Below, piece after piece: positions 6,924 to 37,742 of a stretch of DNA of 64,000 nucleotides. The DNA is from an uncultured Acidobacteriota bacterium (GTDB lineage Bacteria; Acidobacteriota; Vicinamibacteria; Vicinamibacterales; SCN-69-37), in the NCBI GenBank assembly GCA_963780895.1, contig CAWAEG010000001.1, positions 1,114,607-1,178,606 of the forward strand, read 5' to 3'. Position 1 is the first letter of the stretch; each line of letters starts with the position of its first letter. The notes beneath the pieces are model-generated. The model had not been told where the DNA came from. It worked only from the letters and a program-made list of their open reading frames with translations, and searched no databases. The position numbers and the translations under genes are program-made.

Positions 6924-6970
6924 CCGTGGCGGCGGCCGTCCAGGCCTCGGCGGGCGATGTCGTGAACGCG

Positions 6971-7839
6971 ATGAGCGTCGACGTCGAGGACTACTTCCAC
7001 GTCAACGCGTTCGACGGCGTGGTCCCCCGCGATCGCTGGGAAAATCTCGAGAGCCGTGTGACCCGCAACACCGAGCGGCTGCTCGGCCTGTTCGAGGCCG
7101 GTGGTGTCACGGCCACGTTCTTCGTCCTCGGCTGGGTCGCGGAACGGTTTCCGTCTCTCGTCGCGGCCATTGCGAAACAGGGTCACGAGGTCGCGTCGCA
7201 CGGCTACGCGCATCGGCTGATCTACAACCAGACGCGCGAGGCGTTCCGGGACGACGTCCGGCGCGCGAAAGCATCTGCTCGAATCGGCCACGGGCGTCCA
7301 CGTGGATGGCTATCCGCGCGCCCAGCTACTCGGTCACCGAGCAGACGCTCTGGGCGCTCGACGTGCTGATCGAAGAAGGGTACCGCTACGACGCCAGCAT
7401 CTTTCCGATCCGGCACGACCGGTACGGCATGCCGTCGTCGCCTCGCCACCCGCACGTCCTCACACGAGACGGCGGCTCGCTGGTCGAGGCGCCTGCCTCT
7501 ACCGTTCGCTGGGCCGGGATGAACCTTCCCGTCGCCGGCGGCGGCTATTTCCGCATCTTTCCGTATGCGTGGACGCGGTGGGGCATCGGCCGGATCAACA
7601 GGCGTGAGGGGCGTCCGGCCATCTTCTATCTGCACCCGTGGGAGATCGATCCGGCGCAGCCACGGTTCAACGCCGGGTTCGTCAGCCGGTTCCGTCATTA
7701 CCGCAACCTGGACAAGACCGAGGCGCGGCTGCGCCGGCTGCTGCGCGATTTCCGGTTCTCGACCGTGCGGCGCGTGCTGGCGACCGTTCATCCGGAAGCG
7801 GCGGGCGCTCCGACGGCGCTGCGCCTGGCGGGACGCTGA
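6971..7839 (+). pseudogene. Polysaccharide deacetylase (PEP-CTERM-locus subfamily) with two +1 frame disruptions
   Basis: ATG 6971 (GTG 6926 also possible). Frame 2 (...AFRDDVRRAK) shifts to frame 3 at ~7270 (HLLESATGVHVDGY) and to frame 1 at ~7313 (RAPSYSVTEQTLW...), ending at TGA 7837-7839. Motifs NAMSVDVEDYFHVNAF and SHGYAH. 869 nt = 3n+2. Confidence 0.7.
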
Positions 7840-7846
7840 GGCCGCG

Positions 7847-8890
7847 ATGACGCCGTACACCGAGCTCGCGCCCGCACCCGTGTCGCCGGACTTCTTCACG
7901 CCCGCGACGCTGCCGGCGAACACTCGTCCGCAGCTGTTCGTGATCGTCGACACCGAAGAAGAGTTCGACTGGTCCGCGCCGTTTTCGCGGGGCGCCGTCG
8001 GCGTCACGGCCATTCAGGAAGTCGGCCGGCTGCAGCACGTTCTCACGCCGTACGGCGTGGCGCCGACCTACGTCATCGATTATCCGGTGGCGACGACGCC
8101 GTCGTCGGTCGCGCGCCTCGGTGAATTTGCGGTCCGCGGCGAGTGTCACATCGGCGCGCACATGCACCCCTGGGTGAACCCTCCTTACGTCGAGGAACTG
8201 ACCCGCTCGACGAGCTATGCCTGCAACCTGGGCTACGACCTCGAGCACGACAAGATCGCGCAGCTGCGCGGAGCGATCGTCGAGCATCTCGGCGTCGTCC
8301 CGCGCGTCTACAAGGCCGGCCGGTACGGGTTCGGCCAGACGACGGCGGAGATTCTCGAGTCGATCGGGTTCGACGTGGACGCGAGCGTGAATCCGCACAT
8401 GGATTTCCGCGCCGACGGCGGCCCGTCGTTCGAAGGCTTCTCGGCCGAGCCTTCGTTCTTCGGCAAGCGGCGCCGGCTGCTGGAGCTGCCGTGCACGATG
8501 GGCTTCGTCGGGCGCGGCCCGGCGCATGGGCCCTGCCCTGCACCGAGCCGCGTCGACCCGCTGGCTCGAGCCGCTGCGCGCGGTCGGCGTCCTGGCGCGG
8601 AGCGGCGCGCTGAACAAGGTGATGCTCTCGCCCGAGGGCAACACGTGCGCCGAGATGCAGTGCGCTGACCGAGGCGCTCCATCAGGACGGCGTCCGCACG
8701 TTTTCACTGACGCTGCACAGCCCGAGTCTCAAGCCTGGCTGCACGCCGTACGCGACGTCGGCCGCCGAGCGCGACGCGCTGCTCGGGACGATCGATCGGT
8801 ACTGCGACTACTTTTTCGGCAAGCTCGGCGGCGTGGCCGGCACACCGGCCGGCCTGTTCGATCAGATCGCACGAGGAATCGCTGTCATGA
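7847..8890 (+). pseudogene. WalW-type polysaccharide deacetylase-like protein with two or three +1 frame disruptions
   Basis: ATG 7847. Frame 2 shifts to frame 3 at ~8525 and to frame 1 at ~8660. Motifs FVIVDTEEEFDWSAPF, IGAHMHPWVNPP, YKAGRYGFG, LHSPSLKPGCTPY. No in-frame stop before ATG 8887; TGA 8888-8890 lies in frame 2, so the 3' end is uncertain. Confidence 0.55.
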
Positions 8891-13467: not shown

Positions 13468-15324
13468 ATGACCTCGATCCTCGGCATCTCGGCCTTCTAC
13501 CACGACAGCGCGGCGTGTCTCGTCGTCGACGGCGAGATCGTTGCCGCGGCGCAGGAGGAGCGGTTCACCCGCAAGAAGCACGACCCGGATTTTCCCTCCA
13601 ACGCGGTCCGCTTCTGTCTGGAGCGCGCCGGTCAGACGGCCGCGGATCTCGACTACGTCGTGTTCTACGAGAAGCCGATCCGCAAGTTCGAGCGCCTGCT
13701 CGAGACCTACGTGGCCTTCGCGCCGTCCGGGTTCAAGAGCTTCAAGATGGCGATCCCGGTCTGGCTCAAGGAGAAGACGCGGCTGCCCGCGCTCATCCGC
13801 AGGGGCATCGGCCCGGGCCTGCGCGCGCCGCTGGTCTTCACCGATCACCACGAGAGCCATGCGGCCAGCGCGTTTTTCCCGAGCCCGTTCGAGGAAGCCG
13901 CGATTCTGACGCTCGACGGCGTCGGCGAGTGGAGCACGACCGCGCTCGGCGCCGGCCGCGGCAACCGGATCCAGCTCAACCGGCACATTCAGTTCCCGCA
14001 CTCGCTCGGCCTGCTCTATTCCGCGTTCACGTACTACTGCGGCTTCAAGGTGAACAGCGGCGAATACAAGCTGATGGGCCTCGCGCCGTACGGACGCCCG
14101 CTCTACAAGGAACTGATCACGCGCCATCTCTTCCGCTTGCGGAACGACGGCAGCTTCTGGCTGAACATGGACTACTTCAACTACTGCCAGGGACTGACGA
14201 TGACAAACCGGGCGTTCGACGAACTGTTCGGCGGACCGCCGCGGAAGCCTGAGGCCGACATCGAGCAGCGGCACATGGACCTGGCGGCCAGCATCCAGGC
14301 CGTGACCGACGACGCGGTGCTCGCCATCGGCCGGGAGCTCTTCCGCGAGACGGGCATGACGCGGCTGGTGCTGGCGGGCGGCGTCGCGCTCAACTGCGTC
14401 GCGAACGGCCGGCTGCTCCGCGAAGGTCCGTTCGACGACATCTGGATCCAGCCCGCGGCCGGCGACGCCGGCGGCGCGCTGGGCGCGGCGATGTTCGTCT
14501 GGCACCAGCTGCTCGAGAAGCCCCGGACACGCCGGGCGCGACCGATCGCCAGCGCGGCAGCTTCCTCGGCCCCGAGTTCTCGACGCAGGACATCTGCGCG
14601 TATCTCGACCGCGTCGGCATCGCCTACCGGCGCGCGGCCGATGACGCGGACCTCTGGACGCGTGTCGCCGATCTGCTCGAAGCCGAGCGGATCGTCGGCT
14701 GGTTCCAGGGCCGCATGGAGTTCGGCCCGCGCGCGCTCGGCGCGCGCAGCATCCTCGGCGATCCGCGGTCGCCCCGGATGCAGGCGACGATGAACCTCAA
14801 AATCAAGTTTCGCGAGAGCTTCCGTCCGTTCGCGCCGTGCGTCCTGCAGGACGAGGCGCATCGCTGGTTCGATCTCGAGCCGAGGCAGGAGAGCCCTTAC
14901 ATGCTGCTCGTCGCGCCCGTCCTCGAGCCGCACCGCATTCCGGTCACGAACGAGCAGCGCGTGACGATGCGGACCGATCCGGACCTGAGAAACCGCGTCA
15001 ACATTCCGCGGTCGACTATTCCGGCGGTCACGCACGTGGACTACAGCGCGCGGATTCAGACGGTCGATCACGACCGAAATCCGAAGCTGCGCGGGACTGC
15101 TCGCCACGTTTTTCCAGCGCACCGGCTGCCCCGTGCTCGTCAACACGAGCTTCAACGTGCGGGGTGAACCGATCGTGTGCACGCCCGAGGACGCATACCG
15201 CTGCTTTCTCGCGACGGAAATGGACGCGCTCGTGCTGGGCGACGTGATTGTGCTGAAGCAGGACGCGCGGGGGATCGATCAGGCGGCGCGGGCCAGGCAC
15301 CTTTCGCAGTTCCAGCTGGATTGA
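13468..15324 (+). pseudogene. Carbamoyltransferase (NodU/CmcH family), paralog 3, with one 1-nt deletion and one 1-nt insertion
   Basis: ATG 13468 (MTSILGISAFYHDSAACLVVDGEIVAAAQEERFTRKKHD). Frame 1 to 3 at ~14522 (C-run) and frame 3 to 1 at ~15090. TGA 15322-15324. Length is 3n. Motifs FTDHHESHAASAFF, LDGVGEW, GEYKLMGLAPYG, LAGGVALNCVAN, WIQPAAGDAGGALGAA, GRMEFGPRALGARSIL, FRPFAP, VDYSARIQTV, VNTSFNVRGEPIVCTP. Confidence 0.8.
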
Positions 15325-15327
15325 TCC

Positions 15328-15741
15328 ATGCAGTGGTCTGATGTCATCGCTCCGCCGCCCAGAAAGGTGCTCCGTCAGTTCGCGGTGCTGTGCCTCGTCG
15401 TCTTCGGTACGATGGCGGCGCTCGGTTTCTGGCGCGGCGGATCGAGCACGATCATGACCGCGATCGCGGCCGCCGGCGTTGTCGTGGGCCTGGTTGGCGT
15501 GATCAGCCCGGGAGCGATCCGGTGGATCTATTCCGGTTGGATGGTGGCGGTGTTTCCGATCGGATGGACGATCTCGCGCATCATCCTGGCCGCGCTGTTC
15601 TACCTGGTCTTCACGCCGGTGGCGCTGGTCTTCCGGCTGATCGGCCGCGACGCGCTTCGGCTGCGGCCCCAGGACGCGTCATCGCAATGGGCGCCCAAGC
15701 CGGGCGCGGGGTCGAGCGATCAGTATTTCCGGCAATTCTGA
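15328..15741 (+). CDS. SxtJ-family small membrane protein
   Basis: 137 aa with predicted TM helices (FAVLCLVVFGTMAALGF; MTAIAAAGVVVGLVGVI; WMVAVFPIGWTISRIILAALFYLVFTPVALVF). Starts 3 nt after the carbamoyltransferase stop, the position SxtJ homologs occupy next to carbamoyltransferases. Confidence 0.65.
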   Translation: MQWSDVIAPPPRKVLRQFAVLCLVVFGTMAALGFWRGGSSTIMTAIAAAGVVVGLVGVISPGAIRWIYSGWMVAVFPIGWTISRIILAALFYLVFTPVALVFRLIGRDALRLRPQDASSQWAPKPGAGSSDQYFRQF

Positions 15742-16018: not shown

Positions 16019-19000
16019 TTACTTCCGGTAAATCGTGATCACGCCTGCGCTGGGAATGTTCGTCGAGAGCGTCTGTCCCGCGATCAGGGTCACGTTCGAC
16101 CAGTTCGTGGTCTGCTGGGTCCCGGTTCGCTCGGTCGAGAAGATGCCGTAGACGCCGGCCGGGAGACCGCTCACCGAGAACGATCCCCCGGTGTCGGACT
16201 TGACGACCACGACGTACCGCCCGTCGGCGTTGACGAAGGCCACCGGACTGAAGTTCGCGTTGCCGGTTGCCTCGATTCGCTCGGCGCCGGGTCGCACGTA
16301 CTTCGTGTACTGACGGTTCAGCTTCGCGTTCGGGCAGAGCTCGGCGACGCCGTTCGTGAGGCGCGTCCACTGATTGATGCACCCGTAGGCGTCGGCGAAC
16401 ACACCCTGCTGCCAGGCGGAGTTCCGGCCCTCGGTGAGATCCTGGTGGAGCATCTCGTAGTTGGCGCCCGAGTTGGGGGTCGTGAAGTCACCCCAGGTAC
16501 TCGAGCATCGACGTTCGCTTGCCCTGCTGCACGGCGCGCGACGCGATCTGCTGGAGATCGGAGAGGGTGCCGCCATAGCGGTGGTACGAGAACTCCTTGA
16601 TCAACGGCGCCGCGCCGGGCACCGCGAGGATGCCGTCGATGAACGACGGCGCCGCGCCCATGTTCGACGTGGAGGGGCCGATGAAGTCCGGCACCGCGAA
16701 GCCCGCCGCCTGGAGCCGCGCCGCGGTCGCGACGATGACCGCGCCGAGCTTGTCGGGACTCCAGCCGCTCACGTCGTTCGGCGCGAGCATGACCTCGATC
16801 CCGTTCGGCACGAAGCCGTACTTCGCGTTCAGGTGCTGGAACGTCGCGAGCATGAACTCCGCGTACTCCTGCGGGTTCTGGTGGTGCTCGAATGCCGACG
16901 CGCCGAAATCGACATACAAGAGGTTGATGTACGGCGTCTCGCCGCGGGCGATCACGCGCTGCCGCCATGGCTGGATGATGTGATCGATCCGCCAGTCCAC
17001 GGTCGTGAAGTTGAACCCGGCCGCGTTGATCACGTTCGGGTCGGCGTTGTCGTTGACGATGTTGTAGCCGCTCCCGTTGCCCGGGCCCTCGACGCCGGAG
17101 CTGATCTCGAGCCGCACGCGATTGATGCCGAGCTCGTTCACCGCGAGCTCGAGGAGCGCCGCCCACTGGCTGTCGCTGATCGACGTGTAGTCGCCGATCG
17201 AGCTGAGAACGCCCGCCTCCCAGCCGGTCATGGTCTGGTACCGGACCGACGGGTTCAGCGTGATCGTGGCGGCGGTCGACGGCGCCGGGACGCTTGCCGA
17301 TGGCGGCGGCACAGGTGCCGGCGGGGGGGTGGTGGGTGGCAACCAGCCGCCGTTCGCACAGGTTCCGCCGCCAAGTGACACATACGGGTCTGGCGTCGTG
17401 CACCCGGTAGTGCCGTTACCGGGTGGTGCCGGGATCGGCGCCGGGATCACCGGCGTCGGCGCGGGAGTGATCGGCCCGGCCGACATGCCCGGCGGAAGCC
17501 AGCCACCGTTGACACACGTGCCACCGCCCATCGCCGCGAACGGATCGGGAGTCGTGCAGCTGTTCGGCGGCGGCGGGGGGGAGCCGTTCGAGGGCGGTGG
17601 GGCCGACGCGCTGGGTGGCGGAGGCGGCGGCGTTGCGCTCGGCGGCGGCGACGTCGGGGCCGGCGGCAGCGCAGGCAGCGAGCCGGCCGGACAGGTGAAG
17701 CCGACGATGCCGGTGCGGGTGGTCGAGCACGGGGTGATCGCGCCGGAGATCGAGATGCCGGCGACGCTCCGGGCCTGCGCGTTGGTCAGGCCGGCCACAC
17801 TGGTGGTGAGCGGCGTCGACGGGATCACGAATGTCGGCGCCTGCTCGTTGGCGAAGACCTCGAAGTTGTCGTTCGCATTGCCGTTGAAACTCTCGACGAC
17901 CATGCGGTCGGAGACAATGATGTTCTGATTCGTGCCCTGATTCGGGGTAAAGTGTCGGAAGACGTGCGCCTGGCCCTGCGTGCCCGAGACGCCCGGAACG
18001 TTGCTGAACTGGACGTTGCGCGCGACCACCAGCCGCGGCGGAATCGCGCTGCCGCCGCCGGTGACGCCGTACGGCGTGTTCATGTACACGTTCCAGTAGT
18101 TCTTGAGCGTGCTGTTCTCGACGGTCAGCGTGCCGGGGGTGTTGCCGTAGATATCGCTGGTGTCGCCGGCCTTGATCGGCGCCTGGATGCCGATGCGGAG
18201 CCCCTGGATATCCGCCTGCCGGATGACGATGTTGCGGGCGATGTAGTCGCCGAAGAAGAACGACACCGCGTTCTCGTGCGGGTTCGTCAGCATCGACGGG
18301 TCGTTGTAGTGGACCCAGCCGTCGAACGTGACGCGGTTCTCGCCGTAGCCATAGAAACCCAGGACGCCGACGTTCCACATCCGCGTGTTGAGGAACGTAC
18401 TGACCGGCACGTCGTAGACTTCGGTGCAGCAGTTGGCGCCGAGGTTCCAGACGGTGATGCCGCGGTGCACGCCGTAGAACTCGTTGGCGCTGAACTCGCG
18501 CAGCGGCACGGCCATCATGTTGACCGTGTGGCCCGACACGTTCGGGTCGGCGCCCGGCGTGCTCGGCACGCGCACGCTGCCGACGCCCAGCATCATATAG
18601 GTGACCGCGAACGAGTTGGCGTTGGCGACGACGTTGTTCCGGATGATGTTGTCGGGTCCGCGCAGCCAGATGCCCGATCCTTCCCAGCCCCAGTCGTTGA
18701 TGCCCTGGCGGCCGTCCGCCCGTTCGAGGCCCGTGCCCCAGGCCCGGACGACGAAGTTGTTCTGGATGACGTTGGCCGTCTCCGAGCCGTCCTCCGTCAT
18801 GATGCCCGCGCCGGCGGCGTTGTACACGACGTTGTCCTGCACCAGCCCGTAGTGGGTGTCGTGGATCGTGATTCCCCACTTGGTACCGCCGTCAATCGCA
18901 TTGCCGATCACGATGAACTGATAGCTGTTGGACAGCGGTGACGCCGGACCGAACAGATGGTGCAGGTGCAGCGAGTAGCGGCCGATCTGGTTGGTTCCAA

Positions 19001-19985
19001 TGTGCGTGGCATGCCCGGAGCTCATGACCGTCGAATCGAGCGGCGAAATCGTCGTGCGCCCGAGGTCCTTGAACGCCGTGTACCGGATGTCCACTTCAGC
19101 CCGATCGGTCATCAGCACGTGCCCGCGCGTGCCCTGCGGGTTCTGTGAGCGGATGACGATGTTCCGCGTAATGTTGCCGACGTGCGGCAGGAAGACGAGC
19201 GCGCCGGCCACATTGCGGCCGCCGCCGTGCGGGAACGCGAGGCCACCCGCCAGCGCCAGGCCCGATCCCGACGCGGCCGCGAGCGTCGGCGTCTCCCACT
19301 GACCGACATACGACGCCGGACTCTGCGACGACTGATTCGTGCCCGGCAGGACGAGCCGATCGCCGCCCTGCCAGCCGGCGACGCCGGCTGCCAGTGCCAA
19401 GGACGACTGACCGGCGTTGGCTTCAGCCGAGAGCCGCACGAACGTCGGCGACTTCACCGATCCGTGCATGGTGATCCGGCCGAAGCCGAGCAGGCCCGTG
19501 CCGTACTGTTCGGGATCCGTCCCGGTATCGACCGGCCGATCGGCGATCACGATCTCGGCGACCGCGTTGGCCGCGACGGGCGCTCCGCTCGTTCCGATCT
19601 GCAAGCCCGCCCCGGGCATGATCGTGAGCGTGCCCACCGTGAGCCGCGTGGAGACGTCCGTGCGGAAGGTGAGCTGGCCGTGGACATTCACGCACGTGAG
19701 GTCCGCGTCGCTCTGGCGATCGTAGGTGACGGTCGTGCCGGCCGAGACCGCGACGCGGTCGTTCACCGTCGGCACCTGCCCGATCGACCAGGTGGCGGGA
19801 TCGGACCACGAACCGCTTCGGACCGACGCGATCGTCGGGTTCGTACAGAGATTCGGAATGCCGTTGGCGAGCTGCGCTTCAGCGAGGCCGGGAGCCGCCG
19901 CGAGGGCGCTCAACGAGATGCAAAGAATGTGTGCTGCAGTCTGTGTACGACGGGGAAGAGTAATCAGATTCAGCGATTGCTTCAT
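16019..19985 (-). pseudogene. Giant secreted G8 + parallel beta-helix + 2x Cys-repeat + GH30-like protein, tandem copy 1, one 1-nt insertion
   Basis: ATG at 19985 (MKQSLNLITLPRRTQTAAHILCISLSALAAAPGLAEA signal). Copy 1 reads CCCCAGGTACTC at 16491-16502 where copy 2 reads CCCCAGTACTC; the extra G at 16496/16497 splits the ORF into 16488-19985 and 16019-16576. 3967 nt = 3n+1. Confidence 0.8.
17336..17557 (-). repeat. Two copies of the 23-aa two-Cys module (copy 1 linker)
   Basis: Encodes CTTPDPFAAMGGGTCVNGGWLPP (~17490-17557) and CTTPDPYVSLGGGTCANGGWLPP (~17336-17403), separated by a Pro/Ala-rich spacer. Confidence 0.85.
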
Positions 19986-20257: not shown

Positions 20258-23200
20258 CTACTTCCGGTAAATCGTGATCACGCCTGCGCTGGGAATGTTC
20301 GTCGAGAGCGTCTGTCCCGCGACCAGGGTCACGTTCGACCAGTTCGTGGTCTGCTGCAGCGTCCCGCCCCGCTCGGTCGAGAAGATGCCGTAGACGCCGG
20401 CCGGGAGACCGCTCACCGAGAACGATCCCCCGGTGTCGGACTTGACGACCACGACGTACCGCCCGTCGGCGTTGACGAAGGCCACCGGATTGAAGTTCGC
20501 GTTGCCGGTTGCGTCGATCCGCTGGGCGCCGGGCCGCACGTACTTCGTGTACTGACGGTTCAGCTTCGCGTTCGTGCAGAGCTCGGCGACGCCATTCGTG
20601 AGGCGCGTCCATTGACTGATGCACCCGTAGGCATCGGCGAACACACCCTGCTGCCAGGCGGAGTTCCGGCCCTCGGTGAGATCCTGGTGGAGCATCTCGT
20701 AGTTGGCGCCCGAGTTGGGGGTCATGAAGTCACCCCAGTACTCGAGCATCGACGTCCGCTTGCCCTGCTGCGCGGCGCGCGACGCGATCTGCTGGAGATC
20801 GGAAAGGGTGCCGCCATAGCGGTGGTACGAGAACTCCTTGATCAGCGGCGCCGCGCCGGGTACCGCGAGGATGCCGTCGATGAACGACGGCGCCGCGCCC
20901 ATGTTCGACGTGGAGGGGCCGATGAAGTCCGGCACCGCGAAGCCCGTCCCCTGGAGCCGCGCCGCGGTCGCGACGATGACCGCGCCGAGCTTGTCGGGAC
21001 TCCAGCCGCTCACGTCGTTCGGCTCGAGCATGACCTCGATCCCGTTCGGCACGAAGCCGTACTTCGCGTTCATGTGCTGGAACATCGCGAGCATGAACTC
21101 CGCGTACTCCTGCGGGTTCTGGTTGTGCTCGAACGTCGACGCACCAAAATCGACATACAAGAGGTTGACGTAGGGGGTTTCGCCGCGGGCGATCACGCGC
21201 TGCCGCCATGGCTGGATGATGTGATCGATCCGCCAGTCCAGATTCGTGAAATTGAACCCGGCCGCGTTGATCACGTTCGGGTCAGCGTTGTCGTTGACGA
21301 TGTTATAGCCGCTGCCGTTGCCCGGGCCCTCGGCGCCGGAGCTGATCTCGAGCCGCACGCGATTGATGCCGAGCTCGTTCACGGCGAGATCGAGAAGCGC
21401 CGACCACTGGCTGTCGGTGATCGAGGTGTAGTCGCCGATCGAGCTGAGGACGGCTGCCTCCCAGCCGGTCATGGTCTGGTACCGGACCGACGGGTTCAGC
21501 GTGATCGTGGCGGCGGTCGACGGCGCCGGAACAGACGATGACGGCGGAGGCGGTGCTGGCGCAGGTGCAGGCGCTGGGGCAGGCGCCGGTGCGGGAACAG
21601 ACGATGACGGCGGAGGCGGTGCTGGCGCCGGCGCAGGCGCTGGGGCAGGCGCCGGTGCGGGAGCGGTCGGACTCGTCGGAACGGGAATCCAGCCACCGTT
21701 CTGGCACACGCCAACCAGTCCGGGTATTCCTACGAACGGATCGGTTCCGGGGCAGGTGCCAGGCGCGGGCGCGGGCGCGGGCGCCGGAACAGACGACGAC
21801 GGCGGTGGCGGTGCTGGCGCAGGTGCAGGTGCCGGGCTCGTGGGCGGCAGCCAGCCGCCGTTCGAGCATGTTCCGCCGCCAAGTGCGGCAAACGGGTCGG
21901 GCGTGGTGCACCCGCCCGGCGCGGGCGCTGGCGTGGGACTGGTCGGCGGCAGCCAGCCGCCGTTGACGCACGTGCCGCCACCAAGCGCGACAAACGGATC
22001 GGGCGTCGTGCACCCGGTAATTCCGGAACTGGGTGGGGCAGGCGCCGTCATGGTCGGGGGTAGCCACCCGCCGTTCACGCACGTGCCGCCGCCAAGCGCG
22101 ACAAACGGATCGGGCGTCCGGCATTTGTCGCCGCCCTTGCCGTTGCTCTTGTCTCCAGGGCCGTTCCCTTTCTTCCCGTCGCCAGGCGCCGTCGACGTCA
22201 TGGTCGGCGGCAGCCAGCCACCGTTGACACACGTGCCACCGCCCATCGCCGCGAACGGATCGGGCGTCGTGCAACTGATCGTTGGCGTCGGCGTCGGCGT
22301 CGGCGTCGGCGTTGGCGTCGGCGTTGGCGTCGGCGTCGGCGTGGGCCCGCTCGGCGGCGGCGCCGTTGCGCTCGGCGGAGGCGGAGGCGTCGTGGTCGGC
22401 GGCGGCGACGTCGGGGCCGGCGGCAGCGCAGGCAGCGAGCCGGCCGGACAGGTGAAGCCGACGATGCCGGTGCGGGTGGTCGAGCACGGGGTGATCGCGC
22501 CGGAGATCGAGATGCCGGCGACGCTCCGGGCTTGCGCGTTGGTCAGGCCGGCCACACTGGTGGTGAGCGGCGTCGACGGGATCACGAACGTCGGCGCCTG
22601 CTCGTTGGCGAAGACCTCGAAGTTGTCGTTCGCATTCCCGTTGAAGCTCTCGACGACCATCCGATCCTGGACGATGATGTTCTGGTTCGTGCCGAAGGTG
22701 GGCGTGAAATGGCGGAAGACGTGGGCCTGGCCCTGCGTGCCCGAGAAGCCGGGCACATTGCTGAACTGCACGTTGCGCGCGACCACCAGCCGCGGCGGAA
22801 TCGCGCTGCCGCCGCCGGTGACGCCGTACGGCGTGTTCATGTACACGTTCCAGTAGTTCTTGAGCGTGCTGTTCTCGACGGTCAGCGTGCCGGGGGTGTT
22901 GCCGTAGATATCGCTGGTGTCGCCGGCCTTGATCGGCGCCTGGATGCCGATGCGGAGCCCCTGGATGTCCGCCTGCCGGATGACGATGTTGCGGGCGATG
23001 TAGTCGCCGAAGAAGAACGACGCCGGGTTCTCATGCGTGTTCGTCAGCATCGACGGGTCGTTGTAGTGGACCCAGCCGTCGAACGTGACGCGGTTCTCGC
23101 CGTAGCCGTAAAAGCCCAGGACGCCGACGTTCCACATCCGCGTGTTGAGGAACGTACTGACCGGCACGTCGTAGACGTCGGTGCAGCAGGCGGCGCCGAG

Positions 23201-24742
23201 GTTCCAGACGGTGATGCCGCGGTGCACGCCGTAGAACTCGTTGGCGCTGAACTCCCGCAGCGGCACGGCCATCATGTTGACCGAATGCCCCGACAGTTTC
23301 GGGTCGGCGCCGGGAGCGCTCGGCACTTGTACGCTGCCGACGCCCAGCATCATGTAGGTGACTGCGTAGGAATTCGCGTTGGCGACGACGTTGTTCCGGA
23401 CGATGTTGTCGGGTCCGCGCAGCCAGATGCCCGATCCTTCCCAGCCCCAGTCGTTGATGCCCTGGCGCCCGTCCGCCCGGTCGTGGCCGGTGCCCCAGGC
23501 CCGGACGATGAAGTTGTTCTGGATGACGTTGGCCGTCTCCGAGCCGTCCTCCGTCATGATGCCCGCGCCGGCGGCGTTGTACACGACGTTGTCCTGCACC
23601 AGCCCGTAGTGGGTGTTGTGGATCGTGATTCCCCACTTGGTACCGCCGTCAATCGCATTGCCGATCACGATGAACTGATAGCTGTTGGGCGGCGGCGATG
23701 CCGGGCCGAACAGATGGTGCAGGTGCAGCGAGTAGCGGCCGATCTGGTTGGTTCCAATGTGCGTGGCATGCCCGGAGCTCATGACCGTCGAATCGAGCGG
23801 CGAAATCGTCGTGCGCCCGAGCTCCCTGAAGGCCGTGTAGCGAATGTCCACTTCAGCCCGATCGGTCATCAGCACGTGCCCGCGCGTACCCTGCGGGTTC
23901 TGCGATCGAATGACGACGTTCCGCGTGATGTTGCCGACGTGGGGCAGGAACACCAGGGCGCCGGCCGCGTTGCGGCCGCCGCCGTGCGGGAACGCGAGGC
24001 CACCCGCCAGCGCCAGGCCCGATCCCGACGCGGCCGCGAGCGTCGGCGTCTCCCACTGACCGACATACGACGCCGGACTCTGCGACGACTGATTCGTGCC
24101 CGGCAGGACGAGCCGATCGCCGCCCTGCCAGCCGGCGACGCCGGCTGCCAGTGCCAAGGACGACTGACCGGCGTTGGCTTCAGCCGAGAGCCGCACGAAC
24201 GTCGGCGACTTCACCGATCCGTGCATGGTGATCCGGCCGAAGCCGAGCAGGCCCGTGCCGTACTGTTCGGGATCCGTCCCGGTATCGACCGGCCGATCGG
24301 CGATCACGATCTCGGCGGTCACGTTGGCCGCGACGGGCGCTCCGCTCGTCCCGATCTGCAAGCCCGCCCCGGGCATGATCGTGAGCGTGCCCACCGTGAG
24401 CCGCGTCGAGACGTCCGTGCGGAAGGTGAGCTGGCCGTGAACATTCACGCACGTGAGGTCCGCGTCGCTCTGGCGATCGTAGGTGACGGTCGTGCCGGCC
24501 GAGACCGCGACGCGGTCGTTCACCGTCGGCACCTGCCCGATCGACCAGGTGGCGGGATCGGACCACGAACCGCTTCGGACCGACGCGATCGTCGGGTTCG
24601 TACAGAGATTCGGAATGCCGTTGGCGAGCTGCGCTTCAGCGAGGCCGGGAGCCGCCGCGAGGGCGCTCAACGAGATGCAAAGAATGTGTGCTGCAGTCTG
24701 TGTACGACGGGGAAGAGTAATCAGATTCAGCGATTGATTCAT
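20258..24742 (-). CDS. Giant secreted G8 + parallel beta-helix + 5x Cys-repeat + GH30-like protein, tandem copy 2 (intact, 1494 aa)
   Basis: ATG at 24742 (MNQSLNLITLPRRTQTAAHILCISLSALAAAPGLAEA); the track ORF start 24862 is an upstream extension. G8-like SGSWSDPATWSIGQVPTVNDRVAV...VNVHGQLTF. PbH1-like repeats NAIDGGTKWGITIHNTHYGLVQDNVVYNAAGAGIMTEDGSETANVIQNNF. Pro-rich linker. C-terminal ITLNPSVRYQTMTGWEA...EVMLEPND... TIM-barrel-like domain plus beta-sandwich tail. Confidence 0.85.
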   Translation of the reverse strand: MNQSLNLITLPRRTQTAAHILCISLSALAAAPGLAEAQLANGIPNLCTNPTIASVRSGSWSDPATWSIGQVPTVNDRVAVSAGTTVTYDRQSDADLTCVNVHGQLTFRTDVSTRLTVGTLTIMPGAGLQIGTSGAPVAANVTAEIVIADRPVDTGTDPEQYGTGLLGFGRITMHGSVKSPTFVRLSAEANAGQSSLALAAGVAGWQGGDRLVLPGTNQSSQSPASYVGQWETPTLAAASGSGLALAGGLAFPHGGGRNAAGALVFLPHVGNITRNVVIRSQNPQGTRGHVLMTDRAEVDIRYTAFRELGRTTISPLDSTVMSSGHATHIGTNQIGRYSLHLHHLFGPASPPPNSYQFIVIGNAIDGGTKWGITIHNTHYGLVQDNVVYNAAGAGIMTEDGSETANVIQNNFIVRAWGTGHDRADGRQGINDWGWEGSGIWLRGPDNIVRNNVVANANSYAVTYMMLGVGSVQVPSAPGADPKLSGHSVNMMAVPLREFSANEFYGVHRGITVWNLGAACCTDVYDVPVSTFLNTRMWNVGVLGFYGYGENRVTFDGWVHYNDPSMLTNTHENPASFFFGDYIARNIVIRQADIQGLRIGIQAPIKAGDTSDIYGNTPGTLTVENSTLKNYWNVYMNTPYGVTGGGSAIPPRLVVARNVQFSNVPGFSGTQGQAHVFRHFTPTFGTNQNIIVQDRMVVESFNGNANDNFEVFANEQAPTFVIPSTPLTTSVAGLTNAQARSVAGISISGAITPCSTTRTGIVGFTCPAGSLPALPPAPTSPPPTTTPPPPPSATAPPPSGPTPTPTPTPTPTPTPTPTPTPTISCTTPDPFAAMGGGTCVNGGWLPPTMTSTAPGDGKKGNGPGDKSNGKGGDKCRTPDPFVALGGGTCVNGGWLPPTMTAPAPPSSGITGCTTPDPFVALGGGTCVNGGWLPPTSPTPAPAPGGCTTPDPFAALGGGTCSNGGWLPPTSPAPAPAPAPPPPSSSVPAPAPAPAPGTCPGTDPFVGIPGLVGVCQNGGWIPVPTSPTAPAPAPAPAPAPAPAPPPPSSSVPAPAPAPAPAPAPAPPPPSSSVPAPSTAATITLNPSVRYQTMTGWEAAVLSSIGDYTSITDSQWSALLDLAVNELGINRVRLEISSGAEGPGNGSGYNIVNDNADPNVINAAGFNFTNLDWRIDHIIQPWRQRVIARGETPYVNLLYVDFGASTFEHNQNPQEYAEFMLAMFQHMNAKYGFVPNGIEVMLEPNDVSGWSPDKLGAVIVATAARLQGTGFAVPDFIGPSTSNMGAAPSFIDGILAVPGAAPLIKEFSYHRYGGTLSDLQQIASRAAQQGKRTSMLEYWGDFMTPNSGANYEMLHQDLTEGRNSAWQQGVFADAYGCISQWTRLTNGVAELCTNAKLNRQYTKYVRPGAQRIDATGNANFNPVAFVNADGRYVVVVKSDTGGSFSVSGLPAGVYGIFSTERGGTLQQTTNWSNVTLVAGQTLSTNIPSAGVITIYRK
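21528..21659 (-). repeat. 2 x 66-bp tandem direct repeat encoding PAPAPAPAPAPAPPPPSSSV-type linker
   Basis: Unit 21528-21593 and unit 21594-21659 differ at only a few positions. A third, diverged copy lies at about 21785-21840. Confidence 0.85.
21678..22273 (-). repeat. Array of five copies (4 canonical, 1 degenerate) of the 23-aa two-Cys module (copy 2 linker)
   Basis: CTTPDPFAAMGGGTCVNGGWLPP (~22208-22273), CRTPDPFVALGGGTCVNGGWLPP (~22050-22115), CTTPDPFVALGGGTCVNGGWLPP (~21946-22013), CTTPDPFAALGGGTCSNGGWLPP (~21846-21911), and the degenerate CPGTDPFVGIPGLVGVCQNGGWIP (~21678-21757). Confidence 0.85.
22281..22346 (-). repeat. Hexanucleotide microsatellite (GGCGTY)x11 encoding (PT)11
   Basis: gttggcgtcggcgtcggcgtcggcgtcggcgttggcgtcggcgttggcgtcggcgtcggcgtgggc. 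In-frame coding repeat present only in copy 2. Confidence 0.9.
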
Positions 24743-32967: not shown

Positions 32968-33731
32968 CGAGGAGCCTTTCGAGCGAGCGGAACACGCGGT
33001 ACCCCGCGGTCCGCCGCCTGGATCTGAATCCGCCGCCGATAATCACGCAGGGCATGCCGGCGGCCGACGCGCCCGCCGCGTCCACGTCGGGCCGATCGCC
33101 GACGAACAGCACGTCACCCGGCGCCATCCGCCACGCCCGGCACGCGAGCAGGAATCCTCGCGGGCTGGGTTTGAGCGCCGCGACTTCCGGCGCGCTCGTG
33201 CACAGCACGGGCGAAAAGCGTCCGTCGAGACCGAGCGCCTGCAGCTTCGATTCCGGCGGGATAGTCCGACAGCACGCCCGTCCGGACGCCTGCCTGCTCG
33301 AGAAATCCGAGCAGCCGGTCGAGGCCTTTTGCGCGGCAGAACTGGAGGTATTTGAGCGGCCTGGCGAGCATCCATTCGTCGACCAGCCGCTCGACTTCGG
33401 GGACGGTGAGCCCCGTCGCGCGTGCCGCGGCCAACAGCTGTGCCGCGGCCGCCGAGCCCCGCTCGTCGGTCGCTCGAAGCTGTTCCTGGGTCTTGCGGTA
33501 CGTCCGGAGCGCCTGCCAGCGCTGCGGCGCTTTCAGGAATCCGGAGAAGGGCAGGGTGAGCAGCTCCATCGCCATCAGCGATCGCAGCAGCGCCTGCCGA
33601 TACAGCGTGCCGTCGAGATCGAACAGCACCGCCTGAATGCGGCGGCTCGGGTCGAGCGGGTTCAACACGCCGCTCGTCCGCCTGGTCGGATTCCCCACAC
33701 GCCGATTGAGGGGAATCGCGTTAGCCGACAT
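32945..33731 (-). pseudogene. HAD-superfamily hydrolase (phosphatase), one +1 frame disruption near 33257
   Basis: ATG at 33731 (start uncertain). HAD motifs VLFDLDGTLY, GVLSDYP, KPSPRGF, FVGDRPDVD. Junction ...LSDYPA|ESKLQALGLDGRFSPVLCTSAPE with an extra G in GCCGGAA. 787 nt = 3n+1. Confidence 0.65.
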
Positions 33732-35112
33732 GATCGAGCAAGGCCCGGATGCGGGCCGCGTCCACGAGGGCCACCTGACGGACCCAGACGCCGACGAGCA
33801 AGAGCACGGTCGCGGCCGCACCGACCAGAGCCGGCCGGCTTTGACGGAATCCGGCCGCGTGGGGCGTCGCCAGAAACGCGGCGCCGTAGAGCGCGAAGAT
33901 CGGAATCAGCGGCAGGTGGTACCGCGAATGGCCGAAGACGAGTGTGTGCACGCCCGTGATCAGGACGACAGGCAGCAAGAGCAGGATGTGCAGGCGCGCG
34001 GGCGGGCGTGCCAGCCAGACGCCGGCCGCGCCGCACAGAATGACGGCGAGGTACCCGACGACAATCAGGACGGACGCGCTCGCGCCGAGCCAGGCCGGCG
34101 GCGCGTATTTGCCCTGCTGAATCCCCGCCGCGTATTCGCGTTCGAGTCCCCAGAAGTCCGCGAACTTGATGAGCGCCCGCCGCGCCGTGATCTCGGGATG
34201 CTCCCGCATGTAGGCGATCGCCTTGCGCTGCGCCCATTTTTCTTTCTGACCCTCGGTCAGACGCTGCCCTGGAAACTCCCGCGCGATTGGATACGACCAG
34301 CTCTTTTCGCCGGTCAGTCCGACGGCGGCCCACATCCGGTCGTCGGGCGTGTGCTCGTAGTTGCCCATCCGGAGATTCATGCCACCCATCGTGTCGACGA
34401 TCGTCAGGACGCCCTGCAGCCTGGTGTTGCGCGCGGCCCACGGCACGACGACCGCCGCGTAACCGGCGAGCACGGCGGCCGGCAGCGCGACACGCGTCCG
34501 GAGCGGCGCGCGAAGCAGCAGCGCCAGGAGCGGACAGAAGAGGAGCGGCAGCGGCCAGAGGACGCTGCGTGTGAGCGCGGCCAGACCCAGCGCCAGCCCG
34601 CACAGAAGCGCCGTTGACACCCGCGGTGTCTGCACGAGCATCACTGACAGCAGCACGAACGCAATCAGGAGCAGCGTAAACAGTATCTCGGTGAGGATCG
34701 TGAAGTTGAAGAACACGTAGGACGGGTAGAGAAAGAACGCGGCCGCCGCAAACCGGCCCGCCGCGGGACTGAACACGCGCCGTCCAAGCTCGCAGATGAG
34801 CGCCACCGTCGCCAGCGAGAGCAGGATGTGCACGAGCCGAACCGCCTGCAGGTTGCCGACGCCGGCGACCGAAAAAATCGCCGCGAGCAGGCCTGGATAG
34901 AGTGGTGGCCGAATCGATGTCGGCTGTCCAGGTCGCGACGCGAACCCGTCGCCGTTGACGATGCTGGTGGCGAGCTGGACGTAGTGCTGTTCGTCTTCGA
35001 TTTCAGTTCCGAGCGCCGGCGTATGCCAAAATATGGCGAGACGGACGAGCAGCCCGAGGGCGATCGCCACCCTGAGCGCAACCCGGCCATCCGATGAGAA
35101 GACAAAAGTCAC
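33721..35112 (-). CDS. Polytopic membrane glycosyltransferase, GT-C fold (ArnT/PMT_2-like)
   Basis: GTG at 35112. 463 aa with many TM helices. N-terminal loop DEQHYVQLATSIVNGDGF...RPPLYPGLLA is typical of ArnT-like GT-C enzymes. Confidence 0.75.
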   Translation of the reverse strand: MTFVFSSDGRVALRVAIALGLLVRLAIFWHTPALGTEIEDEQHYVQLATSIVNGDGFASRPGQPTSIRPPLYPGLLAAIFSVAGVGNLQAVRLVHILLSLATVALICELGRRVFSPAAGRFAAAAFFLYPSYVFFNFTILTEILFTLLLIAFVLLSVMLVQTPRVSTALLCGLALGLAALTRSVLWPLPLLFCPLLALLLRAPLRTRVALPAAVLAGYAAVVVPWAARNTRLQGVLTIVDTMGGMNLRMGNYEHTPDDRMWAAVGLTGEKSWSYPIAREFPGQRLTEGQKEKWAQRKAIAYMREHPEITARRALIKFADFWGLEREYAAGIQQGKYAPPAWLGASASVLIVVGYLAVILCGAAGVWLARPPARLHILLLLPVVLITGVHTLVFGHSRYHLPLIPIFALYGAAFLATPHAAGFRQSRPALVGAAATVLLLVGVWVRQVALVDAARIRALLDHVG

Positions 35113-35174
35113 GCTGCTTGCCGACTATTGTCGGTCCTGTCTCGACATACCGCCTCTGAATCTCAGACCAACGC

Positions 35175-37742
35175 GTGGCGGCGACTGATAATTCAATTCG
35201 CGTTCCGCTCGGCCCCTTGAATCCGCTGAGATGGGGCTCGGAACGACGCGGGGAACCGATCACAATTGGCGTTCCCATTCCTGCCGGCCTGGCGCGTGCC
35301 GCGAGTCAGATCTTGCTCGACGCGCCGTTCACTTCTGTAACGCCGCCGCAAGTTCGCGTGCTCGATGCGTGGCCCGATGGATCGATCCGCTGGGCGCTCG
35401 TCGATCTGCTGGCCGACACGCCCGCACCGCCGGCGATGAAACCATCGGACCTCGGTGTGACCTCGTCCGTGACGCCGCCCAAAAACGTCCGCGTCTCCAT
35501 GAACGAGAAGACCGTCAACGTCGACACTGGCGCGGCGACGTTCGGCTTCGAATTTGGAGGCGCGTTCCCGTTTTCGTCGATCGACGTCGGAAGCCAGTCG
35601 CCGATCGACATCAGCGCCTCGGGACTTCAGCTCGACACGAGCGGTGCGGCGATGCACTTTCGAATCACCGATGTGCAGGTGCACGAGACAGGCCCTGTCC
35701 GTGCGGAAATCGAATTGCGAGCCGGCGGGGTCGGGCCCGCGCCGCTCGATGTCTCGGCGCGAATCGAGTTGTTCGCGGGCAGCGCGACCGCCCGTCTGCA
35801 CCTGACGCTGCTCAACCGGCGCCGCGCCCGGCACCCGAACGGCCAGTGGGTGCTCGGCGACGAAGGATCGGTGTCGCTGCGATCCGCGGCGCTCGTGCTG
35901 ACCGTCGCGGGATCGATCGACCGCGTGCGATGCGCGGCGGAAGATGGTTCGCCCCTGTCAGACGTCGAGCTGCCGTTCGAGCTGTTCCAGGAATCGAGCG
36001 GCGGCGATCACTGGAACGGGCCCATTCATCGCAACCGCGATGGCCGGGTGCCGCTCCGGTTTCGCGGGTACCGGCTCCGGGCGGGCGCCAGCGAGCGCAC
36101 AGGCGATCGCGCGACGCCCATCGTGGTCGTCGAGACGGATCGCGGGGAGATCGCGGTCACGGCCCCGCGGTTCTGGCAGAATTTTCCGCGCGCGATCGGC
36201 GTCGACGGGCGGACGATCGAAATCGGTCTGTTTCCCAGTCAGGCGCCGGAACCGCACGAGCTGCAGGGCGGCGAACAGAAAACGCACGAGGTTCTGATCG
36301 CGTTCGGCAAGGATGCCGTGTCGGATCCGCCGCTCGCGTGGTGCCACGATCCCCAGTTTGCCTATCCCCCGCCGCAGTGGTGCTGCTCGAGCGGCGCCGT
36401 GCCGTTTCTGATTCCGGAGTGCGACGACGCCAAGCGCGAGTATCTGGACCTCGTTTCGCTCGCGCTCGATCCGGCCAGGGGCTTGGACGCCAAGAACGAG
36501 CGCGCCGACGAATACGGATGGCGGAACTTCGGTGATCTGCACGCGGACCACGAATCCGCGTTCCAGTCGCCGGACCAGCCCCACGTCTCGCACTACAACA
36601 ATCAGTACGACGCGATGGCCGGCTTCGCCATGCACTTCCTGCGAACCGGCGACCGGCGCTGGTGGCGGTTGATGACGGACCTCGCGCGCCACGTCCGCGA
36701 CATCGACATCTACCGGACGACCGGGGACAAGGCCGCGTACAACGGCGGCCTGTTCTGGCACACGTGTCACTACACCGATGCCGGGACCGCGACGCACCGG
36801 ACATACCCGCGCGGCGTGCCGGGCGGCGGACCGTCGTCCGAGCACAACTACAACGCGGGGCTGATGCTCCACTACTTCATGACCGGCGAGCGCGCGTCGC
36901 GCGACGTCGCGATCGATCTCGGCCGCTGGGTCATCGACATGGACGACGGCCGCAAAACGCTGTTCCGCTGGCTGGCGGGCGGCGCGACCGGCCTGGCGAG
37001 CGCGAGCGGATCGATGTCGTACCACGGACCGGGCCGAGGGCCGGCCAATTCGATCCTGGCCTGCCTCGTCGCGGCGCGGCTGACGAATGCGCCCGAATAC
37101 GCCGCGAAGGCCGACGCGTTGATCAGGCGGTGCATCCATCCGGAAGACGACGTCAACGCGAGAAACCTGCTCGACGTCGAGCCGCGGTGGTACTACACCG
37201 TTTTTCTGCAGTCGCTCGGCTGGTACCTGCACCAGAAAGGCGAGCTGGGGCGGTTGGACGAGATGTACGCGTACGCGCGCGCCAGCCTGCTTCGCTACGC
37301 GCGATGGATGGCGGTGCACGAGCGGCCGTACCTCGACCGGCCCGAGGTGCTCGAGTTCCCGACGGAAACGTGGGCCGCGCAGGATATCCGGAAAGCCGAC
37401 GTGTTCCTCTGGGCGGCGCAACACACCACCGCGCACGAACGCGCTCAGTTCCTGGAGCGGGCACGGCACTTTTTCGAATACTCGGTCAGCACGCTGGCGA
37501 CGAAGCCCACGCGTCACTACACGCGGCCGGTTGTCCTGCTGCTGACGAGCGGGATTCGCTCCGGCTGGTTCGGCGTCAACGCGTCGGCCCTGCCGGAGCC
37601 GGCGGGCGTACAGCCTCCACCGGCCGGTCCACCGCCCGCGTCGTTCGAATCGCAGAAGACCCGCGCCAAGCGTCACGCGCTCATCGTGACCGTTCTGTCG
37701 ATCGTGGCGACGACGATGGCCGTCGGGTTCTGGATCCTTTGA
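35175..37742 (+). CDS. Large putative glycan lyase/hydrolase (PcRGLX/YetA-like: N-terminal barrel + alpha/alpha toroid) with C-terminal TM anchor
   Basis: GTG 35175 (start uncertain). N-terminal ...GEPITIGVPIPAGLA...VRVLDAWPDGSIRWALVDLL pattern. YGWRNFGDLHADHE...SHYNNQYD...GGLFWHTCHY...EHNYNAGLMLHYFMTGE in the toroid-like part. Terminal hydrophobic helix HALIVTVLSIVATTMAVGFWIL. Confidence 0.5.
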   Translation: MAATDNSIRVPLGPLNPLRWGSERRGEPITIGVPIPAGLARAASQILLDAPFTSVTPPQVRVLDAWPDGSIRWALVDLLADTPAPPAMKPSDLGVTSSVTPPKNVRVSMNEKTVNVDTGAATFGFEFGGAFPFSSIDVGSQSPIDISASGLQLDTSGAAMHFRITDVQVHETGPVRAEIELRAGGVGPAPLDVSARIELFAGSATARLHLTLLNRRRARHPNGQWVLGDEGSVSLRSAALVLTVAGSIDRVRCAAEDGSPLSDVELPFELFQESSGGDHWNGPIHRNRDGRVPLRFRGYRLRAGASERTGDRATPIVVVETDRGEIAVTAPRFWQNFPRAIGVDGRTIEIGLFPSQAPEPHELQGGEQKTHEVLIAFGKDAVSDPPLAWCHDPQFAYPPPQWCCSSGAVPFLIPECDDAKREYLDLVSLALDPARGLDAKNERADEYGWRNFGDLHADHESAFQSPDQPHVSHYNNQYDAMAGFAMHFLRTGDRRWWRLMTDLARHVRDIDIYRTTGDKAAYNGGLFWHTCHYTDAGTATHRTYPRGVPGGGPSSEHNYNAGLMLHYFMTGERASRDVAIDLGRWVIDMDDGRKTLFRWLAGGATGLASASGSMSYHGPGRGPANSILACLVAARLTNAPEYAAKADALIRRCIHPEDDVNARNLLDVEPRWYYTVFLQSLGWYLHQKGELGRLDEMYAYARASLLRYARWMAVHERPYLDRPEVLEFPTETWAAQDIRKADVFLWAAQHTTAHERAQFLERARHFFEYSVSTLATKPTRHYTRPVVLLLTSGIRSGWFGVNASALPEPAGVQPPPAGPPPASFESQKTRAKRHALIVTVLSIVATTMAVGFWIL

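Follow-up and report, generated by a model that had tools for sequence, protein, structure and literature searches.

In Firmicutes, the CW_binding_1 repeats are units of about 20 residues that form beta-hairpins with conserved glycines and aromatic residues; they occur as C-terminal arrays of variable length on unrelated secreted enzymes and hold them non-covalently to a polymer of the cell envelope through avidity. The small carbohydrate-binding modules (CBMs), such as the fungal CBM1 and the bacterial CBM10 and CBM5/12, are disulfide-stabilised, rich in aromatic residues and glycine, and joined to catalytic domains by Pro/Thr/Ser linkers. Type I dockerins consist of duplicated Ca-binding loop-helix segments of about 22 residues, which pair with a cohesin and follow Pro/Thr linkers at the C-terminus of many unrelated secreted enzymes of one lineage, and the CysD domains of the gel-forming mucins, eukaryotic units of about 110 residues with many cysteines, interrupt regions rich in Pro, Thr and Ser. 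Here we analyse a two-cysteine module of about 22 residues that is repeated in the linkers of two neighbouring genes of an uncultured bacterium from the Acidobacteriota, the abundant but poorly cultured soil phylum to which the Vicinamibacterales belong. The genes lie within positions 1,114,607 to 1,178,606 of contig CAWAEG010000001.1 (assembly GCA_963780895.1), and this whole stretch of 64,000 nucleotides is called the window below. The module is best described as a new, unnamed and lineage-restricted mini-domain family of a known general kind.

A family of small two-cysteine modules

The repeat is real: translation of the minus strand maps five modules to the linker of one gene (copy 2) and two to that of its neighbour (copy 1), and by motif mapping the sequences, cysteine spacing and coordinates given in a preliminary description of this DNA are correct (Table 1). 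The two cysteines are 14 residues apart in six of the seven modules and 16 apart in the longer module 5 of copy 2, and a motif scan of the window found no further instance in any frame. A profile built from the seven modules was searched against 1.84 billion protein cluster representatives. At E<=1e-3 it matched 367 of them; 214 matches remain at E<=1e-10 and 100 at E<=1e-30, with 2-9 matched stretches per protein. Since there are hundreds of matches at such low E-values, the resemblance between the window modules goes far beyond chance similarity. A three-module profile retrieved 119 proteins, all unnamed or labelled 'hypothetical', and a 66-residue two-module query retrieved 15 short fragments.

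Conservation was calculated from 566 modules of the best 150 proteins. In the first half of the module the conserved positions are C (98%), T (68%), P (77%), D (93%), P (98%), F (96%) and the GGG turn (89-96%); in the second half they are C (100%), N (77%), G (97%), G (86%), W (100%), P (91%), P (65%), G (62%) and M (40%). The family consensus is G-G-C-T-T-P-D-P-F-[VA]-[AS]-[LIM]-G-G-G-T-C-V-N-G-G-W-L-P-P-G-M, with a length of roughly 22-27 residues. The NGGW motif had been called invariant, and it is indeed present in all seven window modules, but the figures above show that this does not extend to the whole family. A sister subtype with a shorter first loop, C-T-x-P-Q-P-G-x-G-W-x-C-x-N-G-G-W-L-P-P-G-M, has a cysteine spacing of 11 and is mixed with standard modules in the same arrays at two loci (L012, 3589-6489, and L017, 1-1644).

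The module corresponds to no named domain, as had been suspected: Pfam, NCBIfam, PDB sequences and PDB folds are all without a match. When the linker and a single module were searched at E<=10, Pfam returned only EGF (E 0.29; 11.9 bits against a cut-off of 21.5) and NCBIfam returned no match to the module. No Pfam family spans the module in 75 carrier proteins, and proteins that consist of an array only have no precomputed Pfam domain and are labelled 'hypothetical'. A literature search gave nothing relevant on the module or its motifs NGGW and PDPF, nor on the combination of G8, Acidobacteria and exopolysaccharide. We also considered a multi-core precursor similar to those of ribosomally synthesised and post-translationally modified peptides (RiPPs); this was dropped, as the modules sit behind large Sec-exported enzymes. 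RiPP maturation genes were not seen among the scanned neighbours, where no search was aimed at such genes.

The structure of a single module (module 3 of copy 2) was predicted with AlphaFold2 from an alignment of 68 module sequences. The model has a mean predicted local distance difference test score (pLDDT) of 76.8, with 86-89 in the core, and contains a helix at residues 14-16 and strands at 20-22 and 25-27; the predicted elements are a short helical turn formed by V-A-L, which follows D-P-F, and a beta-hairpin of T-C-V and G-W-L around an N-G turn. A model of three modules repeats the same elements in each of them, while the spacers have pLDDT values below 50, the predicted template modelling score (pTM) is 0.27 and there is no packing between modules, so the modules are apparently independent beads on a flexible string. 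In the small disulfide-stapled knot suggested earlier the bond itself is putative; both cysteines are retained throughout the family, signal peptides are present and the predicted fold is compact. From conservation and export we infer that a disulfide formed after export would join the lead-in segment with the N-terminal cysteine to the first strand of the hairpin, and that the invariant Phe and Trp would pack into a small, partly exposed aromatic cluster.

Host genes, array composition and module number

Both copies share one layout: they begin with a Sec-type signal peptide, followed by a G8 domain and a right-handed beta-helix of the CEMIP type, and a long Pro/Thr/Ala linker then leads to a domain similar to glycoside hydrolase family 30 (GH30). 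Copy 2, with the N-terminus MNQSLNLITLPRRTQTAAHILCISLSALAAAPGLAEA, matches the Pfam families G8 (1.2e-14), CEMIP_beta-hel (2.2e-19) and Glyco_hydro_30C (4.4e-5). The first two are above their gathering cut-offs (54.7 bits against 22.9, and 70.5 against 27.3), with similar values in copy 1, and Glyco_hydro_30C, with 24 bits, is just over its cut-off of 22. GH30 enzymes combine a TIM barrel that carries two catalytic Glu with a C-terminal beta-sandwich; the GH30-like domain further has weak PDB matches to the GH30 xylanases 1nof (1.4e-6) and 3gtn and only sub-threshold matches in NCBIfam; the N-terminal part of copy 2 matches a TMEM2-type cell surface hyaluronidase in PDB (8c6i, 8.7e-5). The two genes are tandem paralogues and encode putative glycanases. 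A third G8/CEMIP beta-helix paralogue on the opposite strand lacks the linker, the modules and the GH30-like domain. It stops right after the cysteine pair that closes the beta-helix, where the linkers of copies 1 and 2 begin, and this confirms the start of the linker in copy 2.

Outside the linker, copies 1 and 2 are 95.4-95.6% identical in DNA by blastn. The linker itself cannot be aligned throughout: it measures 841 nucleotides in copy 2 and 325 in copy 1 in this comparison, and of the modules the first alone aligns. The frame of copy 1 is broken by one extra C (TACCTGG versus TACTGG in copy 2). Without it, copy 1 encodes 1321 residues, and over all of them it is 94% identical to P0282, a protein that is intact in an independent assembly. 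An indel error of the long-read assembly, or a pseudogene, is a plausible cause, and the former is made plausible by a carbamoyltransferase gene nearby that is likewise split between frames. In this gene (13468-15247, plus strand) Carbam_trans_N occupies one frame as far as about 14500, and Carbam_trans_C is encoded by an open reading frame (ORF) at 14715-15167.

Module 5 of copy 2 had been described as degenerate, yet it is not a decayed copy: it belongs to a conserved subtype that terminates arrays. This subtype has the form C-x-x-x-D-P-F-x-x-[IL]-P-G-L-x-G-x-C-x-N-G-G-W-[IV]-P, in which the GGG turn is exchanged for a hydrophobic xPGLxG loop and the cysteine spacing is 16. It recurs in many proteins: counted with a regular expression, 34 of 477 modules have the form that is two residues longer, and 33 of these 34 are the last in their array. 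In the orthologues P0166, P0169, P0170, P0167 and P0179 it closes the array just ahead of the GH30-like domain, and it is missing from copy 1 and P0282. In P0166, P0169 and P0170, thrombospondin-type-3-like Ca-binding motifs (DSDGDGV.N..D.CPGT..G..VD..GCP) are found between the terminal module and the GH30-like domain; both window copies are without them. The Lys/Gly-rich spacer of copy 2, considered atypical before, has equivalents in the orthologues P0290, P0171 and P0166, where a spacer rich in K, G and N is again followed by a module that begins with C-[RKS]xPDPF. Family-wide, the spacers consist of Pro, Ser, Thr, Gly and Ala (33% Pro, 22% Ser+Thr), with a median length of 24 residues and a range of 5-101.

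The number of modules varies, as had been proposed, among orthologues (from 2 to 10) and also among near-identical proteins. The orthologues compared are 61-94% identical in their catalytic parts. Two modules are found in copy 1, P0282 and P0170, three in P0169 and P0173, four in P0058, P0166 and P0167 (the latter count includes a terminal variant missed by the regular expression), five in copy 2, six in P0171 and ten in P0290. P0005 and P0285 are 100% identical over 517 residues save one clean indel of 47 residues, a module plus a spacer; the repeats of this pair are nearly identical and may have collapsed in assembly. Some database proteins with one module are frameshift artefacts, e.g. P0178, whose tail consists of further modules read out of frame.

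Module 1 is orthologous between the two window copies. The remaining pairs of modules are 71-89% identical in DNA and their codons differ mostly by synonymous changes, from which it follows that the modules are old and under purifying selection. The order in copy 2 (module 1, K/G spacer, further modules, terminal subtype) is that of the orthologue P0166, and copy 1 is without modules 2 and 3 and the terminal subtype. Deletion in the lineage of copy 1 would therefore be the simplest explanation of its short array. We also asked how far low-complexity chance similarity, a wrong frame, or collapse or expansion in assembly could account for the repeat and for the difference of two versus five modules. 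The two broken frames in the window (at 16497 and at 13468-15247), which are either assembly indel errors or pseudogenes, and the frameshift products among the 'one-module' database proteins lend some colour to an artefact. But the frame runs through both flanking Pfam domains, there are hundreds of homologues, the differences between modules are mostly synonymous, and an identity of 71-89% within the array is too low for a collapse of repeats; in addition, the two-module state is reproduced in the independent assembly of P0282 and the order in copy 2 is matched by P0166. An artefact thus appears extremely improbable. An ORF on the plus strand (21471-22856) is a typical high-GC shadow ORF, and coding on that strand was dropped because the frame on the minus strand runs on into the Pfam domains and its differences between modules are mostly synonymous.

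Table 1. Positions of the modules, their host genes and other features in the window.
Feature	Position	Strand	Sequence or size	Remark
Copy 2 gene	20258-24742	-	1494 aa from ATG (MNQSLNL)	ORF call
Copy 2 linker	21512-22489	-	326 aa, 5 modules	from the Cys pair closing the beta-helix to the start of the GH30-like domain
Copy 2 array	21683-22273	-		inside the linker
Copy 2 module 1	22208-22273	-	CTTPDPFAAMGGGTCVNGGWLP	97% DNA identity with copy 1 module 1
Lys/Gly/Asn-rich spacer, copy 2	22124-22183	-	GDGKKGNGPGDKSNGKGGDK	
Copy 2 module 2	22058-22123	-	CRTPDPFVALGGGTCVNGGWLP	motif mapping
Copy 2 module 3	21947-22012	-	CTTPDPFVALGGGTCVNGGWLP	motif mapping; query for AlphaFold
Copy 2 module 4	21845-21910	-	CTTPDPFAALGGGTCSNGGWLP	copy 1 module 2 is nearest to it in DNA (83%)
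Copy 2 module 5, array-terminating subtype	21683-21754	-	CPGTDPFVGIPGLVGVCQNGGWIP	motif mapping
Copy 1 gene	16019-19985	-		tandem paralogue; frame broken by extra C at 16497
Copy 1 array	17337-17558	-		inside the linker
Copy 1 module 1	17493-17558	-	CTTPDPFAAMGGGTCVNGGWLP	motif mapping
Copy 1 module 2	17337-17402	-	CTTPDPYVSLGGGTCANGGWLP	motif mapping
Third G8/CEMIP beta-helix paralogue	37778-40066	+		55% identical to copy 2 residues 17-765
Bac_transf priming sugar transferase	5055-6923			
SxtJ-like protein	15328-15741			
PMT_2 GT-C transferase	33721-35124	-		
ORF without Pfam match	35160-37742	+	860 aa	coding-like G+C content at third codon positions; directly upstream of third G8 paralogue

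Carrier proteins, genomic context and possible function

The cluster representatives carry no taxonomy, and the distribution of the family was read from one narrow pattern scan with one genome per species. This gave 39 loci, 38 of them in metagenome-assembled genomes (MAGs) of Acidobacteriota that are mostly labelled Vicinamibacterales; several MAGs gave two or three loci. The genome of the window was not among these loci; its GC content, the module and its nearest relatives also suggest a Vicinamibacterales MAG. The module had been described from the linkers between two domains, and its co-occurrence with glycanases had been raised as a point to check. Neither is typical of the family. In about 100 of 147 carriers no more than 40 residues separate the end of the array from the C-terminus, and the array is clearly internal in only two, so a position between domains is the exception and the C-terminal end the usual place. 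Stop-delimited ORFs in the loci have, in many genes, real stops 0-8 residues past the last module. The tails after the last module mostly have 3-17 residues and are often basic (VPKG, IPVRR, LPPGMGGGR), with no hydrophobic anchor, transmembrane helix or PEP motif. By a simple heuristic, 84 of 110 full-length carriers have an N-terminus that resembles a signal peptide. The partner domains are heterogeneous, mutually unrelated and mostly not glycoside hydrolases: they include Flg_new_2 (10 proteins), DUF11, Big_7, G8/CEMIP, purple acid phosphatase, fn3, DMFA2_C, NHL, PLD, GSDH and Exo_endo_phos. The 25 Pfam families found in 75 carriers contain no sorting or anchoring domain of the PEP-CTERM or type IX secretion system (T9SS) kind, and BACON (one protein) is the only binding-type domain among them. 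As the arrays are mostly C-terminal, the carriers exported and the partner domains unrelated, the module is a promiscuous C-terminal appendage of secreted proteins and not an accessory of glycanases.

As in the window, module genes are often adjacent tandem paralogues, each with a C-terminal array (L014, L016, L022, L026, L032 and L037). Some carriers (L002, 5284-6621; L003, L004, L007, L008 and L024) have a conserved domain of about 75 residues past the array, with the pattern ..TGTLH..S....W.I.GDDG..Y.S....P...LVDG.RVTF.G.. and no Pfam match.

The extreme C-terminal position, the lineage-specific distribution and the heterogeneous cargo would also suit a C-terminal signal for secretion or sorting, comparable to T9SS C-terminal domains, PEP-CTERM or the Gly-rich repeats of type I secretion. 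However, such a signal is difficult to reconcile with 2-10 repeats, with an internal placement that is possible, as in the window, and with the lack of a transmembrane helix or PEP motif past the array; the NCBIfam models of sorting domains have no match to the modules, and N-terminal Sec signals together with conserved cysteines speak against type I secretion. We consider a sorting signal very unlikely. Repeats of the RTX (repeats-in-toxin) or type I secretion kind were dropped on the same two features, signal peptides and conserved cysteines.

The window itself is a large polysaccharide-biosynthesis cluster, and most of the ORFs scanned have such functions. Besides the genes listed in Table 1 it contains ParA/BcsQ-like and AAA (AAA_22) ATPases, glycosyltransferases of families GT1, GT2 and GT4, two carbamoyltransferases, a hexapeptide acyltransferase, a DegT aminotransferase, an AsnB-type amidotransferase and FkbH_N. 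The orthologous locus L040 is alike: three G8 paralogues are found along with glycosyltransferases, PMT_2 and genes for sulfate activation. There, a gene of 770 residues without a Pfam match (6110-8422) adjoins a G8 gene. Around the unrelated module genes of the 39 loci the recurrent neighbours are Wzx-type flippases, GDP-mannose dehydratase, DegT, PMT_2 and tetratricopeptide repeat (TPR) proteins. The link between module genes and glycan clusters is suggestive only, as the loci are partly orthologous and hence not independent, and come without a background rate.

PMT_2 adjoins module genes at L004 (2755-4407), L006, L021, L030 and L040 (14509-15345). Its targets may be the Thr/Ser/Pro-rich linkers, or its role may lie just in making the polysaccharide. 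On the former reading the modules and their Thr/Ser/Pro surroundings would be acceptor or recognition sites for periplasmic glycosylation that the co-located GT-C enzyme of the PMT_2 type turns into mucin-like stalks; the enzyme is encoded in the window as well as at these five loci, and the C-T-T-P motif and the composition of the spacers (22% Ser+Thr, 33% Pro) are reminiscent of the O-glycosylated linkers of actinobacterial PMT substrates. But such genomes encode many GT-C enzymes of the PMT_2 family, with diverse functions, so that the adjacency may be due to chance or to the polysaccharide itself. We regard this proposal as quite improbable.

Somewhat less improbable, though still unlikely, is a dockerin-like role, in which the arrays or their terminal subtype would dock onto a receptor or scaffold protein of the outer surface and so bring many different enzymes together on one platform. 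The modules are C-terminal, confined to one lineage and attached to many unrelated secreted proteins; a module is about as large as one dockerin segment, and the terminal module offers a hydrophobic loop (IPGLVG). Yet Dockerin_1 is not matched, a DxDxDG loop for Ca binding is absent, and up to 10 copies per protein are unlike the known docking modules. Nor does a candidate receptor gene recur beside the module genes of the 39 loci; the only recurrent neighbours there, in loci that are partly orthologous, are glycan-biosynthesis genes and TPR proteins.

A small unit for glycan binding or for tethering to the cell surface, expanding and contracting by recombination, had been suggested earlier as a possibility. 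We tentatively favour, at less than even confidence, the arrays as a polyvalent non-covalent tether to a ligand of the cell surface or to exopolysaccharide. In this model, which draws on analogy, each module would be a weak non-covalent binding unit and repetition would provide avidity, holding secreted enzymes and adhesin-like proteins on a cell-surface polymer or exopolysaccharide of the producer. The array in the window would have been captured between two putative glycanase domains encoded within a polysaccharide cluster, where it may keep both domains on the polymer of that cluster and set their distance, and array length would shift by unequal recombination or deletion between modules. 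A generic tether is preferred to a module that targets a substrate because the partner domains are unrelated, the arrays are mostly C-terminal with tails that have no hydrophobic anchor, and no sorting or anchoring domain is among the Pfam families listed for 75 carriers.

Several points weigh against the tether. Nothing in the data points to a ligand; Pfam, NCBIfam and PDB show no detectable similarity to known carbohydrate- or wall-binding modules. In a fold of 22 residues, F, W, G, P and C may all be conserved just because folding requires them, so that conservation alone shows no binding surface. The confidence of the single-module AlphaFold model is moderate overall (mean pLDDT 76.8), and the disulfide, deduced from conservation and export, is putative. 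The glycan-cluster link, drawn from non-independent loci without a background rate, may not be significant, and the restriction to Vicinamibacterales rests on one narrow scan of species-representative genomes.

An alternative is a passive stalk or linker that binds nothing, in which small disulfide-locked knots would break up the Pro-rich linkers, resist proteolysis and set the reach of a domain, with copy number tuning the length only; in the window such a stalk would set the distance between the beta-helix and the GH30-like domain. It is a possible but doubtful explanation. Modules and extended Pro-rich spacers (33% Pro, median 24 residues) follow each other in regular alternation, AlphaFold gives isolated beads with no inter-module packing, the arrays of the window lie between two domains, and the conserved C, G, P, F and W are all of a fold-determining type. 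However, most arrays are at the extreme C-terminus, where a stalk would have no distal part to support unless the C-terminus itself is anchored, and the terminal subtype and the very strong conservation across unrelated proteins, which includes the polar D (93%), N (77%) and T (68%), exceed what a spacer needs.

The tether can be carried further, to a conjecture that we think rather unlikely: that the module, with about 22 residues and one disulfide, might be smaller than any autonomous ligand-binding fold so far described in bacteria, and part of a lineage-wide surface-display system of Vicinamibacterales. In each genome, C-terminal arrays with a dedicated cap module would then hold several unrelated exoenzymes and adhesin-like proteins on the exopolysaccharide or outer surface of their own cell. 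If true, such a system would keep extracellular enzymes in soil private to the cell that makes them, and recombination would tune the length of the arrays. If the modules are mere linker stiffeners, the result is a useful annotation and biologically modest. In either case a family of hundreds of clusters that is absent from Pfam, NCBIfam and PDB marks the C-termini of many unrelated secreted proteins. It is a candidate for the domain databases, and it permits part of the secreted and surface-associated protein set of these organisms to be predicted from sequence. The module may also be of interest as a very small, presumably disulfide-stabilised scaffold, i.e. as a possible binding or display tag. 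For annotation it should be kept in mind that the linker arrays of these putative glycanases are quick to gain or lose modules, and that frameshifts in long-read MAGs easily disrupt them.

Comparison with known systems

It is instructive to compare the module with the established families, although by the comparisons made here it belongs to none of CW_binding_1, CBM1 and the other small CBMs, type I dockerins, EGF, Sushi and the C-terminal sorting domains. A local likeness exists to Sushi, or complement control protein (CCP), domains: C-x-N-G-x-W-x-P resembles the C-terminal part of a CCP of complement factor H (E = 1.4 over 9 residues). But a CCP has about 60 residues and four cysteines, and this is not homology. 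The sorting domains PEP-CTERM and T9SS Por_Secre_tail are single C-terminal signals, built either as a motif with a transmembrane helix and a basic tail or as a beta-sandwich of about 80 residues. They differ in that the module arrays are followed by tails of mostly 3-17 residues without a hydrophobic helix; the NCBIfam model Por_Secre_tail has a sub-threshold match (E 0.046) in copy 2, which falls in the GH30C beta-sandwich and not in the modules. Compared with type I dockerins, the module has no EF-hand-like Ca loop and no Dockerin_1 match, it occurs in 2-10 copies, and no cohesin-like partner recurs in the 39 loci. The CysD domains share with it the principle of folded, cysteine-containing units within Pro/Thr/Ser-rich and probably extended sequence, which is an analogy only, with no homology.

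The small CBMs come closer. Like them the module is very small, rich in aromatic residues and glycine, and placed on Pro/Thr/Ser linkers, in the window on putative glycanases. The differences are considerable, however: there is no Pfam or PDB similarity, and where these CBMs have 36-60 residues with 2-3 disulfides, the module has about 22 with one putative disulfide; a protein can carry up to 10 modules, and most partner domains are not glycoside hydrolases. CBM1 is defined by a planar strip of three aromatic residues, whereas the module has only two cysteines and two conserved aromatic residues.

The CW_binding_1 repeats differ in that they are contiguous, form one solenoid, contain no cysteines and are Gram-positive, with no sequence match to the module, whereas the modules are beads, each probably with a disulfide, on Pro-rich spacers of 5-101 residues that are predicted to be disordered, in a Gram-negative lineage. 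What the two have in common is the size of the repeat, the hairpin, the variable C-terminal arrays and, as proposed here for the module, the mechanism of avidity. By analogy, then, the module would work most like the cell-wall-binding repeats or the small CBMs on Pro/Thr linkers.

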